Shown here piece by piece: positions 3,443 to 28,344 of a stretch of DNA of 64,000 nt. Position numbers and translations under genes: made by a program. Under the pieces are notes generated by a model. That model made no database searches. It saw only the letters and a program-made list of their open reading frames with translations, and had not been told where the DNA came from. Each line of letters begins with the position of its first letter. The first letter of the stretch is position 1. The DNA is from a virus: positions 49,072 to 113,071 of IMG/VR virus record IMGVR_UViG_3300021185_003284; one strand, written 5' to 3'.

Positions 3443-4663
3443 ATGGATTTAGATTTTTATAATGAGCATGGATATCTCCATATCGAAAATGCTATCCCAA
3501 AAGAGTATATAGAAATTGCAAGAGAAAAAGGCATGCCTTTAGTCAAATGGTCTAGAGAAAATGTTAATAAACCTGCACTAGCTGGCCCACCTACATTAAA
3601 TCTACATGTAGGATGTGCTGGAGCATATGAAGGAGAGTTAATGAACCTTTATACTTCTAAAATCTCATATGATTTAGTTACCACTATTTTACAGAAAAAA
3701 GATATATTTTTATTTAATGATCAAATGGTCTATAAGTTTCCAAATGATAACTTTACATTTGCTCCTCATTACGATAATCAATATGGAGCTGAAAATAAGG
3801 ATGGTAAAATGCATACTGTTAATATGAGTTGGGTACTAGATGACTTTACAGATGATAACGGAACATTAGAACTTCAAAGCTTAAAAACAAAAGAGTGGCA
3901 TAGAGTCTATCCTAAAGCAGGAGATATTATAGCCATAAACGGAAACTGTATACATAGATCAGGTCCTAATACTTCTGATAAACCTAGAGGACTATATGCT
4001 TGTGTGTATTCTGAAGGACAGATAAACTTACAAAATTACTATAAGGAACCTTTTCTACTTAAAGATACAGATACACAGCACCTTCATCATCTATCTAATG
4101 GCATACCAATACAACAATTTAGAGGATTTGAGGAGTACTTTACTAAATTTTTAGAACTAAATAAATTTGATAGGATATTAGAATTAGGAACTTCAAGAGG
4201 AGGTTTAACATATTTCCTCTCTACTATATTTGACGGACCTATTATTACAGTTGATAACGTAACTAAGCTAATAGACCAAAAAGTATATAGTGTAGCACGA
4301 GTAATGGAAGCAGATCATATGAGCTTTCAAACTCAGCAGTTCTTACATAAAGAGTTTATTTCTAAAGAAGGAAAGACATTAGTACTTTGTGATGGAGGTG
4401 ACAAACCTTCTATCTTTAATGCTTATGCTACTTTAATAAAGGAGGGAGACTTTATAGGAGTGCATGATTTCTTTGTATCAAAGGAAGAATATGAAAAACA
4501 AAACGCTTGGAACTGGATGGAATGCTCAGAAGATCAAATAAAAAACGTGATACGTGAGTATAAACTAGAAAAGACTGATACTTATTTACTCAACATCGTT
4601 TGGGGTATGTATAAGAAGAACTCTAAGAAAGTAGATCTACCAACTTATTCATCTATAATATGA
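3443..4663 (+). CDS. Fusion of PhyH-like 2OG-Fe(II) dioxygenase and class I SAM methyltransferase
   Basis: N-half: HYD...H(RS)...R facial-triad pattern. C-half: ILELGTSRGG SAM motif, LCDGG, GVHD. Confidence 0.75.
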   Translation: MDLDFYNEHGYLHIENAIPKEYIEIAREKGMPLVKWSRENVNKPALAGPPTLNLHVGCAGAYEGELMNLYTSKISYDLVTTILQKKDIFLFNDQMVYKFPNDNFTFAPHYDNQYGAENKDGKMHTVNMSWVLDDFTDDNGTLELQSLKTKEWHRVYPKAGDIIAINGNCIHRSGPNTSDKPRGLYACVYSEGQINLQNYYKEPFLLKDTDTQHLHHLSNGIPIQQFRGFEEYFTKFLELNKFDRILELGTSRGGLTYFLSTIFDGPIITVDNVTKLIDQKVYSVARVMEADHMSFQTQQFLHKEFISKEGKTLVLCDGGDKPSIFNAYATLIKEGDFIGVHDFFVSKEEYEKQNAWNWMECSEDQIKNVIREYKLEKTDTYLLNIVWGMYKKNSKKVDLPTYSSII

Positions 4664-10575: not shown

Positions 10576-12810
10576 ATGAAAGGTACATTATTTTCAGCTG
10601 ACTTTGTAAAAGACGGAAACGGCGATAGTAAACTAATCGAAATCAACACTGATACAGCTTGTATCGCAGGATTAGCTTCTAACATCGACTTTACTGATCT
10701 TTACTCAGTTTTAGCTACAAACACAATCACAGACCTACAGGTAATCTATAAAGAATTTCAAGAGCCAATCTTAGATAGACTTAAAGCTCAGAAACCTGAG
10801 GGAGTAACAATCACCGAACATAAGGAAATACACTCTTCTATATATCCAACTTCTATAGCAGACGATGCTACTAAGTTTATATTGAGATTAGCTTATGACG
10901 AAAATGCATTATTAGATGCCATTTACGCTAAAAATGATGCAAACTTACATGGTTTGTTCGGAGCACAAGGACCAGCATCAGCATCACTTGTAGTATCTGC
11001 TAAACAGTCAGCAGATTCCTCTAACCTTAATTACGTATTAAACGGACCAACAGAACCAGATTTTGCTGTTAAGCCTAAAGTTCCTACTAAATCAGGAATT
11101 GACTTTTATAAGCTAGGAGGTTCAACAGGATCTATTGAAGACAGGATAAACGAATTTACTGCTTCTATTGATTCAGGCGTTAATGTAATTACAAACTACG
11201 TTAGTGATGCAACAGATACAGCTAAGTCAGTAAGATCATATCAAATCGTATATGGAGCTGATTTAGATATCACTTGGTTAGGTGCTTATACTCTTGATGC
11301 TTTATTTACTCATACTTTAAGTTTAGTATACGATGATAATAAAGTAGTTAATAAATTAGCTAACAAGCATTACTATGAATTTGCTACTAATGACATCTCA
11401 GATAACGAAGGTGTTTATTATGAGGCTAAAATTAAGAAAGAAGATGGTAACTACGATGTAGCGGAAGATGCAGTAATAGGTACATTATATGATTCTTATT
11501 ATGTAAGTGGATCGCCGATGACTGATAACAGTCTTATATTAGACTCATGGTCTTTTGCTGGAGATACTCTACCTTCTGGTTCATATAGTACATCATCATC
11601 TTTACAGTCAAACACTTCAGTCACAATGGGAGATAATTCATTAAGAAGAATTACTCTTGATGACGGACAAACAGTACTATTAGGAGGAGCTAACAGAGCA
11701 TTAGTACATGATAATGTTAATAATGAAACTTCTTACTTAAGAGCTAGAGATATTAAAGCTGGATTCAAATTATTTGATGAAAACGGAGCTAGTAAAGGAG
11801 TTACTGCACATGATATAATCATATTAGATAACGACTCAGATTCTAAAATTATAGAATTAGGAGTAGAGGATGTAGATAACTATGTTGTAAGTGGGTCTAA
11901 TACTATTATTCACAACGCACCTTGTTTCATTGCCGGAACTAAAGTTAATATGGAAGACGGTTCAATGAAGAATATTGAAGACGTTAAAGAAGGAGATCAA
12001 GTATGTTGTTGGGACTTTGAAATAAATGGTTTCTCAAATGAGAAAGTATTAATAACTACTGAAACAGAAGATCAGAAAGTAGTACAGATAACATTTAAAT
12101 GCTTCGGTAATGATCTAGATATATATGCAACTCCAGACCATCCATTCTTTGTAGAAGGTGGTAAAGGTTGGGCATGTCAAGATCCAGAATTACTTAAAGA
12201 AAAGACTGGAATGGAAGCTGCTCTATTAGATGCAGGAGATAGTATACTGACAGGTAAGGAAGGAGAAACTTCTATTGTTACAGGAATTACTTCTTGTGAC
12301 TGGACAGCGACAGTATATAACTTAGATAACGTATTCAAATATAATAACTACTTTATATATGGAATGTTAGTACACAACAGATTTATCTTTTCTTGTCATA
12401 CTTATGATAGTAAAGTAGAAATGGCTGATGGTACTCACAAAGCTATAGGAGAAGTAAAAGTTGGAGATAAAGTAAAATCTATCAAAGACGGAATCGTAAC
12501 AGAAGGTACTGTTACTGATCATTTAATTCACGTTACTAACGATGTAATGAGAACAATCAAAACTACTAATGGATATACAGAAATCAATCACCCAATCTTA
12601 GTTGACGGTGAGTGGGTAGCTGCTAAAGAATTAGGAGAAGTAGAAAGTGTATTTGTTGATAACTTCTATAACTTAGAAATTGACGGAAACATTTCTGAAA
12701 GTGATCATAACTATATCGTTGACGGAATGGTATCATCAGGATTAGGAGACAGCAAAGAGCTTAATGCTAAATATCAGAGACAACCTAAACAATTAACTAA
12801 ACACTTATAA
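10576..12810 (+). CDS. Circularly permuted ATP-grasp-like domain fused to three tandem Hint domains
   Basis: N-terminal ADF...KLIEINTDT and AVKP. Hint units: G279-HN447; C450(FIAGT)-TPDH-HN601; C607(HTYDSKV)-INHP-YNLE-NYIVDG. Confidence 0.75.
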   Translation: MKGTLFSADFVKDGNGDSKLIEINTDTACIAGLASNIDFTDLYSVLATNTITDLQVIYKEFQEPILDRLKAQKPEGVTITEHKEIHSSIYPTSIADDATKFILRLAYDENALLDAIYAKNDANLHGLFGAQGPASASLVVSAKQSADSSNLNYVLNGPTEPDFAVKPKVPTKSGIDFYKLGGSTGSIEDRINEFTASIDSGVNVITNYVSDATDTAKSVRSYQIVYGADLDITWLGAYTLDALFTHTLSLVYDDNKVVNKLANKHYYEFATNDISDNEGVYYEAKIKKEDGNYDVAEDAVIGTLYDSYYVSGSPMTDNSLILDSWSFAGDTLPSGSYSTSSSLQSNTSVTMGDNSLRRITLDDGQTVLLGGANRALVHDNVNNETSYLRARDIKAGFKLFDENGASKGVTAHDIIILDNDSDSKIIELGVEDVDNYVVSGSNTIIHNAPCFIAGTKVNMEDGSMKNIEDVKEGDQVCCWDFEINGFSNEKVLITTETEDQKVVQITFKCFGNDLDIYATPDHPFFVEGGKGWACQDPELLKEKTGMEAALLDAGDSILTGKEGETSIVTGITSCDWTATVYNLDNVFKYNNYFIYGMLVHNRFIFSCHTYDSKVEMADGTHKAIGEVKVGDKVKSIKDGIVTEGTVTDHLIHVTNDVMRTIKTTNGYTEINHPILVDGEWVAAKELGEVESVFVDNFYNLEIDGNISESDHNYIVDGMVSSGLGDSKELNAKYQRQPKQLTKHL

Positions 12811-19890: not shown

Positions 19891-19989
19891 CTTAGTAACT
19901 AGTAGGTTCTTATTGTTATTTTTCATATCTTTAAGTATTAAAGAAAGAGAGATATACTCTCTTTATAATTAATTTAATTTATTTCTACT

Positions 19990-20130
19990 ATGATTCAACC
20001 TATCTATCACACCGACGACAACATTAAAAAAACTATTCAATCTCTATTAGAATCTAATTCGATTACACCCGAATTCGCCGACGATATTTACAACTTAGTA
20101 TATAATAAAAATTTAACCGACCAAGAATAA
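19990..20130 (+). CDS. Small acidic protein (46 aa), not in the ORF track
   Basis: ATG 19990 to TAA 20130, behind a variant promoter (TAG-N20-TATCTTTA, 19903-19933) and an AAGAGAG/CTCTCTT hairpin. Confidence 0.5.
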   Translation: MIQPIYHTDDNIKKTIQSLLESNSITPEFADDIYNLVYNKNLTDQE

Positions 20131-20150
20131 ATTAAAAATAACTTGGGGAG

Positions 20151-20216
20151 GAGTTGCCTCCCTGAGTATTTCTTCTTATATTTAAGTATAATTAAAAAGG
20201 TAAAATAAAGGTTATG
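20151..20216 (+). promoter_or_regulatory. Promoter TTG-N20-TATATTTA with AAAGGTT-ATG leader
   Basis: Repeated motif. Confidence 0.75.
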
Positions 20217-20402
20217 ATACAGATTAAAGATTTAAAAGTAGGTCAGATCTTCCAGATGGAAGGCTTAACAGAGAATGGTGATACAGTTCAAGCTGATTGT
20301 ACCCTTCACGCTTATAACGGAATGAATAAGTACGTTGTTGAATCAGATGGTATTACGATATTATTCGATGGAGAGGATGTAGTAACTAAAGTATATAAGT
20401 AA
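20214..20402 (+). CDS. Hypothetical protein
   Basis: Has its own promoter and leader. Confidence 0.65.
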   Translation: MIQIKDLKVGQIFQMEGLTENGDTVQADCTLHAYNGMNKYVVESDGITILFDGEDVVTKVYK

Positions 20403-20641
20403 TGGCTAGAGATAAAAAAAGATATTCAGTACAGATAGATTTGTACATTCATGCAGACAATGATTATATGGCTCGTAAAAAAGCTCATGAGTATGCTGAA
20501 GAGATAGATGCTAAGCATGTTAATGCTAGAGCTAATGTAATAGAGATAGGTGAGCAACCATTTGCTTCACTTTCATATAGAAAACTAGATGATAAATCTA
20601 GACCTATCGAGAAAGAAAAAGATGAACCGCTACCATTTTAG
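20402..20641 (+). CDS. Hypothetical protein ending DEPLPF (SSB-like acidic tail)
   Basis: Coupled ORF. Confidence 0.6.
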   Translation: MARDKKRYSVQIDLYIHADNDYMARKKAHEYAEEIDAKHVNARANVIEIGEQPFASLSYRKLDDKSRPIEKEKDEPLPF

Positions 20642-20647
20642 TAGCAA

Positions 20648-20659
20648 CGTTCTTTAACA
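20648..20659 (+). promoter_or_regulatory. boxA-like antitermination element CGTTCTTTAACA
   Basis: Similar to rrn/lambda boxA, directly upstream of RNA genes. Confidence 0.45.
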
Positions 20660-20662
20660 TAT

Positions 20663-20944
20663 TGGAGGAAAGTGTTGGATCTGAAAGATTGATCCGTTAA
20701 AGAGAGGCCGACGCGATGAGATGATATCAAGAGCTCGCTAGAAGTTGAAAGCTTAGTACTGACTACCGCCGGTTATAGAGGGAAAGGAAAAGGAACTAAA
20801 GACTGAGGCTCGACATTGGGAGTGTAAATTTTGATCACTTTAAAAGGGGAAGAAAATAAGCTGTGTGAAGACAGCGAGGTACCAAGTCCATTCCGGGCGA
20901 AACTATTTTCACAGAGAGGATACCTAACACCCACCCTAACTCCA
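20663..20944 (+). ncRNA. Candidate structured ncRNA (~280 nt), family unassigned
   Basis: GC-enriched gap without a credible ORF. Closing helices TGGAG/CTCCA and GTGTTGG/CTAACAC; internal GAAAATA/TATTTTC, GCTGT/ACAGC, GGATC/GATCC. Confidence 0.5.
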
Positions 20945-20950
20945 TCTTAT

Positions 20951-21023
20951 AGCGCTGTAGAGCAGTGGCCAGCTCGTTGGGCTCATAACCCAAAGGTCGG
21001 AGGTTCGAATCCTCCCAGCGCAA
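20951..21023 (+). tRNA. tRNA-Met(CAT), initiator (fMet) type; CCA not encoded
   Basis: Cloverleaf: acceptor AGCGCTG/CAGCGCA with 1:72 mismatch, anticodon arm TTGGG-CTCATAA-CCCAA (three G:C pairs), T arm GGAGG-TTCGAAT-CCTCC. Confidence 0.93.
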
Positions 21024-21040
21024 CTAAATTAATAAAGGTT

Positions 21041-21274
21041 ATGAAATATTTAAGTAAAGATTATGTAATGCAAGAGATTATTGATACTGTACATATGATG
21101 CAGCTTAATAATGAAAAGACTCCTGACTTAGAACCAACGTATATGGATGCGTTAATTGAATGGTTCTTTATAGATTGGAATGAGATTGCTGATCGAGATA
21201 CAGACTTTCAAGGATGCTTATTAGAGTTTTTAAGAACTGAGTTTAAAACTGAGACTATAAAACATGCCCTCTAA
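21041..21274 (+). CDS. Hypothetical protein
   Basis: AAAGGTT-ATG start at 21041; the track's upstream extension crosses the tRNA. Confidence 0.65.
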   Translation: MKYLSKDYVMQEIIDTVHMMQLNNEKTPDLEPTYMDALIEWFFIDWNEIADRDTDFQGCLLEFLRTEFKTETIKHAL

Positions 21275-21479
21275 AATTATACCAATCGTAGTAGTCTACA
21301 CAAAAGGTAAAGGCTTCAAAAAGTATATGAAAGTCTTCCGGAATGTAAGGTACATAGATCAAGTTAATAGCTCCAGATCAAAGCTTCTTGATAAAGATAT
21401 TGTTGTACATGATTTAGGATGGGGGGAGTACTTTATAGAAAAGTATATGAAGAAGCATAAAATAACTAAGTATGCGTAG
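21264..21479 (+). CDS. Hypothetical basic protein
   Basis: Overlapping operon ORF. Confidence 0.55.
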   Translation: MPSKIIPIVVVYTKGKGFKKYMKVFRNVRYIDQVNSSRSKLLDKDIVVHDLGWGEYFIEKYMKKHKITKYA

Positions 21480-28192: not shown

Positions 28193-28204
28193 TTGCTTAT
28201 ACGA

Positions 28205-28335
28205 ATTATATTTAATATCTTCAATATATAATTAATAAGATATTAATATAGATAATAAATAATATAATATATAATAATAAAAATATATATATACTTATAT
28301 AAATATATAATATAATTAATAATAAATAAATAAAA
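28205..28335. other. Nearly pure A/T tract (~130 bp)
   Basis: Only a handful of G/C bases; TATA/AAT iterations; also carries a promoter at 28193-28223. Confidence 0.7.
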
Positions 28336-28344
28336 GGTTACACT

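Follow-up and report, generated by a model that had tools for sequence, protein, structure and literature searches.

The window, as the whole 64,000-nt stretch of DNA analysed here is called, derives from a 113-kb IMG/VR virus record (IMGVR_UViG_3300021185_003284) whose completeness is judged to be 68%. Within a string of plus-strand genes, it contains an open reading frame (ORF)-free gap of 399 nt (20642-21040) that holds, all on the plus strand, a boxA-like leader (AACGTTCTTTAACA, 20646-20659), a gene for a structured non-coding RNA (ncRNA) of ~285 nt (20660-20950) and an initiator-type tRNA-Met(CAT) gene (20951-21024). The assignment of the ncRNA gene draws on a covariance model (R1, cmsearch), on covariation, on the lack of a conserved ORF and on the lack of an Rfam match, and the boxA-like leader is conserved along with it. 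Upstream of the gap is an ORF of 79 aa (20402-20641) that has no assigned family and that is found upstream of the RNA in every case, either directly or one ORF apart; downstream is an ORF of 77 aa (21041-21274), which starts 17 nt past the tRNA and which served as bait for homologous loci. None of the neighbouring ORFs (62-169 aa) has a family in Pfam or PHROGs, no partner protein is evident among them, and no gene for a nuclease, recombinase or reverse transcriptase is located near the RNA. The nearest cultured relative is Flavobacterium phage immuto, a 160-kb myovirus to whose baseplate protein that of the virus is 56% identical, and from this match the host is probably a marine member of the Bacteroidota.

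The RNA segment stands out by its composition, which the initial annotation had rightly described as GC-enriched and devoid of a credible ORF. Its GC content is 0.44-0.475, with 200-nt intervals reaching 0.46-0.475, as compared to ~0.32-0.34 in its surroundings and 0.336 in the genome, and its plus strand is 60% purine. No reading frame is conserved: whichever of the six frames is read, two or more stop codons interrupt it in at least four of the five complete copies of the element. The single frame that is open across the RNA, on the minus strand of one homologue (L047), is broken by 2-6 stops in the other four copies, and an open minus-strand frame in L047 would be expected anyway because the plus strand is 60% purine. 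The single-sequence folding energy of 20648-20950 is not better than that of shuffled sequences (z = +1.04), and the support for the RNA thus comes from covariation and not from thermodynamics.

Other unusual stretches occur in the same phage. A second ORF-free stretch, of 301 nt and with a GC content of 0.44, is located outside the window (G000:C1:24131-24431; L191:532-832). It has two terminator-like hairpins ~170 nt apart, and the part between them has the look of a small RNA unit with a promoter-like site of its own, and its only Rfam matches are weak and sub-threshold (E 0.18-0.87). Within the window, an ORF-free gap of 152 nt (28193-28344) has a GC content of only 9%, and an ORF of 744 aa (10576-12810) has Hint/intein-type domains (PT-HINT, Vint, Intein_splicing) in its C-terminal half.

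A profile built from relatives of the downstream 77-aa protein (A1) led to ten metagenome loci and one viral locus. Searches with nhmmer and then with R1 located the RNA in six metagenomic loci at E-values of 1e-28 to 1e-99; the cmsearch scores are 308.8 bits in the window and 105-348 bits across the six homologues. Four of these are complete (L045, L046, L047 and L051) and two are partial, cut at contig ends (L052 and L048), which together with the window gives five complete copies. The copies fall into approximately four lineages, namely the window, L046, L047 and a group formed by L045, L051, L052 and L048, and with only about four independent lineages each compensatory change amounts to one or two events.

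Beyond these loci, the RNA has not been detected. A blastn search of 20400-21300 against 50,697 phage records matched only the tRNA part. Scans of IMG/VR for exact words (GGAGGAAAGTGTTGG, CCGCCGGTTATAGAGGGAAAGG, TTATAGAGGGAAAGG and TGGAGGA..CCCTAACTCCA), filtered with R1, returned chance matches only, as did a scan of 185,579 GTDB species genomes for the 17-mer GGTTATAGAGGGAAAGG, all 61 matches to which are attributable to chance. The upstream 79-aa ORF, used as a query, found zero viral loci, and the relatives reached via the 169-aa ORF carry tRNA-Arg and are without the RNA. Flavobacterium phage immuto has neither a tRNA nor an RNA homologue at the syntenic place or elsewhere in its genome, and searches through the full records of immuto, three related viral contigs and Cellulophaga phage phi17:2 turned up no copy of the RNA. 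The last of these (L193; NC_021798.1 87208-91288) has a cluster of 22 tRNAs with several unannotated gaps of 200-260 nt; these gaps, for example that between tRNA-Ala and tRNA-Ile, could hold other RNAs, and R1 finds no match there.

The structure of the RNA was derived from a model-based alignment (A5), and in its final form consists of 48 proposed pairs. In the alignment, 97.5% of the cells at these pairs are paired, as compared to 27-45% after a shift of the 3' partners by 1-3 columns; this control is the more meaningful one, since there are only about four lineages. Eighteen of the 48 pairs are changed on both sides, and all five measures beat 500 of 500 shuffles. The changes on both sides are distributed over seven helices (four pairs in P2, two each in B and C, one each in D and G, three in E and five in F). 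An earlier version of the structure, without P2, reached 96.4% paired cells, with changes on both sides at 16 pairs; P2 itself, a long-range helix, surfaced in an unbiased scan of all column pairs.

According to this model, the RNA folds into two domains. The 5' domain is closed by P2, whose 5' strand (AGTGTTG, 20671-20677) pairs with CGACATT (20811-20817) over 7 bp; the helix is 100% paired, has four pairs changed on both sides and occurs in the versions AGUGUUG/CGACAUU, AGAGCUU/AGGCUUU and AGUGCAG/UUGCAUU. Within this domain are hairpin B, a three-part stem C and a purine-rich core of ~60 nt. Hairpin B (GGATC...GATCC, 20677-20695) is kept in three sequence versions (GGAUC/GAUCC, UUUGCCC/GGGUAAG and GUACAC/GUGUUAC). 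Stem C (20709-20747) consists of 20709-12/20744-47, 20713-16/20735-38 and 20717-19/20727-29, and is supported by the covariation of GCGA/UCGC, which becomes UCGC/GCGA in L047 (two changes on both sides); its outer part varies on one side only. The conserved joining region (20748-20810) contains a 24-mer, TACCGCCGGTTATAGAGGGAAAGG (20764-20787), that is invariant in every copy reaching it, and the region has no testable pairing because nothing varies there. RNAalifold, applied to the invariant core, predicts pairing of GGCC (20706-09) with GGCT (20807-10) and of AGGG with CCCT. A near-direct repeat within the RNA (20701-20709 and 20802-20810) reads ACUGAGGCC / ACUGAGGCU in most copies, while the first copy in the window (20701-20709) reads AGAGAGGCC; each repeat adjoins the 5' side of a helix strand. 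GGCC with GGCU, both of which are invariant, could lengthen P2.

The 3' domain comprises hairpins D and E, helix G and hairpin F. Hairpin D (AGTG...CACT, 20821-20839) is 100% paired, with a G-C pair replaced by C-G in L047. Hairpin E (GCTGT-GTGAAG-ACAGC, 20860-20875) has three of its five stem pairs changed on both sides. Helix G (20878-20924), in which 20878-83 pairs with 20918-24, is 93% paired with one change on both sides, and encloses both hairpin F (20886-89/20895-98), all five pairs of which are changed on both sides, and the strand TTTCAC (20907-12). The loop of hairpin E (20865-70) forms a pseudoknot with this strand: its six pairs are intact in every one of the five complete copies, a single A-U pair having switched to U-A, and the versions observed are GUGAAG/UUUCAC, GUGAUA/UAUCAC and GUGAAA/UUUCAC. 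The 3' end of the gene (20925-20950) consists of the invariant tail CCACCCTAACTCCA, to which the 3' strand of P1 belongs, and a variable spacer of 6 nt. P1, a short terminal helix of TGGAG (20663-20667) and CTCCA (20940-20944), may join both ends of the RNA; its strands are pairable and show no covariation, and GGAGT (20819-23) could compete with its 5' strand for ACTCC. Several further elements were considered and dropped. An extension of hairpin D (CAUU/AAUG) was abandoned since P2 accounts for the same columns without a mismatch, and neither a k-turn in stem C nor a palindromic kissing loop was convincing.

Four helices had been proposed for this segment in the initial annotation, and they fare unevenly in the comparison. 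The strands TGGAG and CTCCA are present as described and are invariant in all five complete copies, and GCTGT/ACAGC (20860-64/20871-75) is a true hairpin, with the three changed pairs noted above for E. The other two are wrong in detail. GTGTTGG/CTAACAC is present in the window and fails in the L045/L051 group, and its 5' strand pairs instead with CGACATT (20811-17) in every copy. GAAAATA/TATTTTC is not preserved in L045, L046 and L051, and overlaps the better-supported pseudoknot. The loops containing GAAA, to which attention had also been drawn, are not conserved.

The distribution of the RNA is patchy. Three loci (L049, L050 and L054) whose neighbouring proteins are ~85% identical to those of L051 have the order tRNA-Met, 77, 82, X, 169 and are without the RNA, and it is likewise missing from three further records and from a relative with a complete genome of 176 kb. 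The RNA is thus dispensable for this phage group. The flanking genes of the window and L045 are ~97% identical and the tRNA is identical, while the RNA is only 75.6% identical; 20650-20950, compared to L045:2610-2910, forms an island of divergence with ~21% mismatches, and mismatches per 50 nt rise from 0-5 outside to 6-20 between 20650 and 20950, which are the borders of the RNA. Between L045 and L051, the relation is the reverse, with 93.9% identity in the RNA and 68-73% in the flanks. L046 is a mosaic, window-like in its 5' part and L045-like in its 3' part. The patchy distribution, the island of divergence and the contrast in identity between L045 and L051 indicate that the RNA is an accessory cassette, alleles of which move between phages while the fold is kept. 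The comparison of the window with L045 also reveals a large indel or replacement patch at 19900-20150, ending at a hairpin (20141-20167).

The tRNA gene downstream of the RNA was called by ARAGORN and scores 66.7 bits with the Rfam tRNA model. In the Rfam alignment, it has the hallmarks of an initiator: a non-standard 1-72 pair (A/A), an anticodon arm UUGGG-CUCAUAA-CCCAA with three G-C pairs in the stem, and a D stem GAGC/GCUC that gives A11:U24. This bears out its earlier description as an initiator tRNA. The earlier placement is also correct: the RNA comes directly after CGTTCTTTAACA, and the tRNA starts (20951) 6 nt past CTCCA, at which the conservation of the RNA ends. A tRNA is located 3' of the RNA in all four copies where one could be called, with a spacer of 6-14 nt. 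In the window as in L045 and L046, the genes run 62 aa, 79 aa, RNA, tRNA-fMet, 77 aa; in L047, L051, L052 and L048 they run 62-like, 77, 79-like, one extra ORF, RNA, tRNA. In L051, tRNA-Met is replaced by a tRNA-like 5' half (4057-4180; acceptor and D arm CCTCAGTAGGTAGAGG) with an insertion of ~75 nt at the anticodon loop before CAGAG-AAGTC-GTTGG, and the contig end cuts the element. ARAGORN made no call on it with the intron option; this could be a tRNA that is interrupted or has an extended arm.

A strong terminator-like hairpin upstream (20141-67) probably ends the preceding unit, and no such hairpin separates the RNA from the tRNA or the tRNA from the ORF after it. Together with the gap of 17 nt between tRNA and ORF, this fits a single transcription unit for all three. 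From the same-strand string of genes, their spacing and the lack of a terminator between them, we infer that the RNA is co-transcribed with its neighbours and that its 3' end is made by RNase P. Transcription would proceed from behind the boxA-like site, as the same-strand string leaves no room for a promoter or terminator of its own, and the 3' end would be set by the cut of the host RNase P at the 5' end of the tRNA, leaving ~6 nt beyond P1. There is a mechanistic precedent in eukaryotes, where RNase P cuts at the tRNA-like mascRNA and thereby makes the 3' end of MALAT1 or MEN-beta without a terminator. The two cases share a long structured RNA immediately 5' of a tRNA-shaped RNase P substrate, and the analogy is one of mechanism only, since the RNA described here has no triple-helix element.

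The motif that precedes the RNA is likewise reminiscent of a known arrangement. Conservation starts at AACGTTCTTTAA, which is located 5' of the RNA in the window, L045, L046 and L047, despite a different upstream gene in L047, where the stop codon of that gene falls inside the motif. In the L051 group, a diverged version (ATGATCTTTGAA) lies within the last codons of the upstream ORF. The motif is not repeated elsewhere in the phage. A pairing between it and an internal GUUAAAG was considered and rejected; this amounts to 9 bp in the window but shrinks to 5 A-U/G-U pairs in the other copies, and such a helix would cross both P1 and P2. The consensus for boxA of rRNA (rrn) operons is G(C/T)TCTTTAACA, and GTTCTTTAACA (20649-59), which is close to this consensus and upstream of a structured RNA and tRNA unit, is one position off the Escherichia coli rrn boxA core, GCTCTTTAACA. 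Among 11 sampled genomes from the order of Cruoricaptor ignavus (Flavobacteriales-type), the identical motif, GTTCTTTAA(C/A)A, occurs 57-249 nt upstream of the 16S rRNA in three and is absent from eight, while the looser G[CT]TCTTT[AG]A occurs seven times in 88 kb of sampled 16S loci, counting both strands and including the leader matches. The boxA of rRNA operons likewise precedes structured RNA and tRNA (PMC10250234). The site described here lacks the boxB, boxC and long leader-trailer helix of an rRNA-operon antitermination leader. Its sequence and placement lend modest support to its being a Nus-type site, and by analogy with rRNA operons it may recruit Nus factors.

These comparisons support the core of the initial annotation, in which a structured ncRNA of ~280 nt is flanked by a boxA-like site and an initiator tRNA: there are homologues carrying compensatory changes, and the Rfam search of the window and of the homologous loci gives no family for the RNA, just as no family could be assigned before. 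We consider it reasonably probable that 20660-20950 is the gene of a stable, highly structured, trans-acting ncRNA of an uncatalogued family, the maturation of which is coupled to that of the tRNA. The RNA would act in trans, and its most likely target, bound during infection, would be a protein or part of the translation or RNA-processing machinery.

It may be, instead, that the RNA acts in cis as a leader of the tRNA, either as a platform for its processing or stability or as part of a covalently linked RNA-tRNA molecule. This would account for the presence of a tRNA or tRNA-like sequence within 6-14 nt on the 3' side in every case, even where the tRNA differs, and GOLLD RNAs, which can carry tRNAs and one of which is found beside a Met-tRNA (PMC12286853), offer a parallel. 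However, the same tRNA-Met occurs without the RNA in L049, L050, L054 and L044, alleles of the RNA are exchanged while the tRNA stays identical, and a length of ~285 nt, a 24-nt invariant core and a pseudoknot exceed what a leader would need. A cis-acting leader is unlikely.

A second possibility concerns the unity of the element. P1 is the sole link between its two halves and, being invariant, has no covariation, and the junction in the L046 mosaic separates a window-like 5' part from an L045-like 3' part, so that the P2-closed 5' half (20671-20817) and the pseudoknotted 3' half (20818-20930) might be two adjacent modules. We regard this as unlikely. The order and spacing of the two halves are constant in all five complete copies, as are the complementary ends, and neither half is found alone; the two partial copies are cut by contig ends.

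The position of the RNA, directly after a same-strand ORF in every copy, could also suggest that it is the structured 3' end of the mRNA for the upstream 62-aa and 79-aa proteins, which by analogy would shield the message from exonucleases after the RNase P cut. In the window, the distance from the stop codon to the conserved motif is 18 nt, which is too short to accommodate a promoter. Such a model is quite unlikely, however, as the upstream ORF differs between copies (79 aa, 58 aa and 117 aa) while the RNA is kept, and protection from exonucleases does not require an invariant single-stranded core.

Known classes of RNA were considered as well, namely a divergent RNase P RNA, a group I intron, tmRNA, GOLLD or ROOL, and a HEARO-type guide RNA. 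With Rfam 15 (4227 models), the whole window yields only tRNA at the gathering score, and the four homologous loci likewise yield only tRNA; at E<10 on 20400-21200, nothing matches over the RNA except for a 25-nt chance match to HIV-1_SL3 (E 4.4). With permissive filters at E<10, none of the classes named is found in this stretch or in the four homologous loci, whether bacterial RNase P RNA (RF00010/RF00011), group I intron (RF00028), tmRNA, HEARO/omega RNA, GOLLD (RF02032) or ROOL (RF03087). The sequence GGAGGAAAGT in the window resembles the CR-I motif of RNase P RNA, GAGGAAAGUCC, but every other copy has GGAGGACAG in place of GGAGGAAAG, with a C for the CR-I-like A, and the order of helices is unlike that of RNase P, since the 3' strand of P2 here is supplied by the central part of the RNA. 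Nor is there a gene nearby for a nuclease, recombinase or reverse transcriptase; a guide RNA would have a nuclease or transposase gene beside it. Membership in one of these classes is therefore very unlikely.

The tRNA neighbour, at 6-14 nt, is a feature of the phage setting that the RNA has in common with GOLLD and ROOL, and this is a likeness of setting only. T4 RNAC and RNAD, also phage ncRNAs, are smaller than the conserved unit of ~285 nt, at about 120-140 nt. They are transcribed from the tRNA region and have no established function to date (PMC3014915, PMC9697503). As is proposed for the RNA described here, they are probably matured along with the tRNAs. GOLLD and ROOL are large pseudoknotted RNAs of phages and prophages, often located near tRNA islands and also of unknown function; GOLLD sometimes contains tRNAs, and one GOLLD is located downstream of a Met-tRNA (PMC12286853). 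At ~580 to >800 nt, GOLLD and ROOL are 2-3 times longer than the RNA described here, form homo-oligomeric cages and have a different helix layout. The resemblance to both groups is thus one of setting, and not of sequence, size or fold, and for the T4 RNAs it is drawn from their description only.

Finally, the view that the element is the remnant of a gene in decay, or encodes a small protein, in favour of which the unremarkable folding energy and the open minus-strand frame of L047 might be cited, is refuted as far as the present data go by the compensatory changes in seven helices and by the 2-6 stops in that frame in the other four copies.

The preferred reading, that of a trans-acting ncRNA matured along with its tRNA, can be extended, tentatively and with considerable doubt, to a broader model. 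The RNA may be the first member of a new class of phage RNAs with their own biochemical role, such as a ribozyme, a self-assembling RNA or a specific binder of the host translation or RNA-processing machinery, that is tied to the supply of initiator tRNA and whose peripheral helices are swapped as alleles, possibly under pressure from host defences. The swapping of alleles between near-identical phages hints at selection on the RNA itself.

The family is small, and its members come from uncultured marine phages. Among the structured RNAs found beside phage tRNA genes (T4 RNAC/RNAD, GOLLD and ROOL), the RNA is a compact addition of ~285 nt whose fold is well defined and includes a pseudoknot, along with an invariant core of 24 nt, and its size makes it tractable for chemical probing, crystallography, cryo-EM and pull-downs. 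The boxA-like site before the RNA and the initiator tRNA after it suggest that phages may produce such RNAs by reusing the transcription logic of host rRNA operons together with RNase P.
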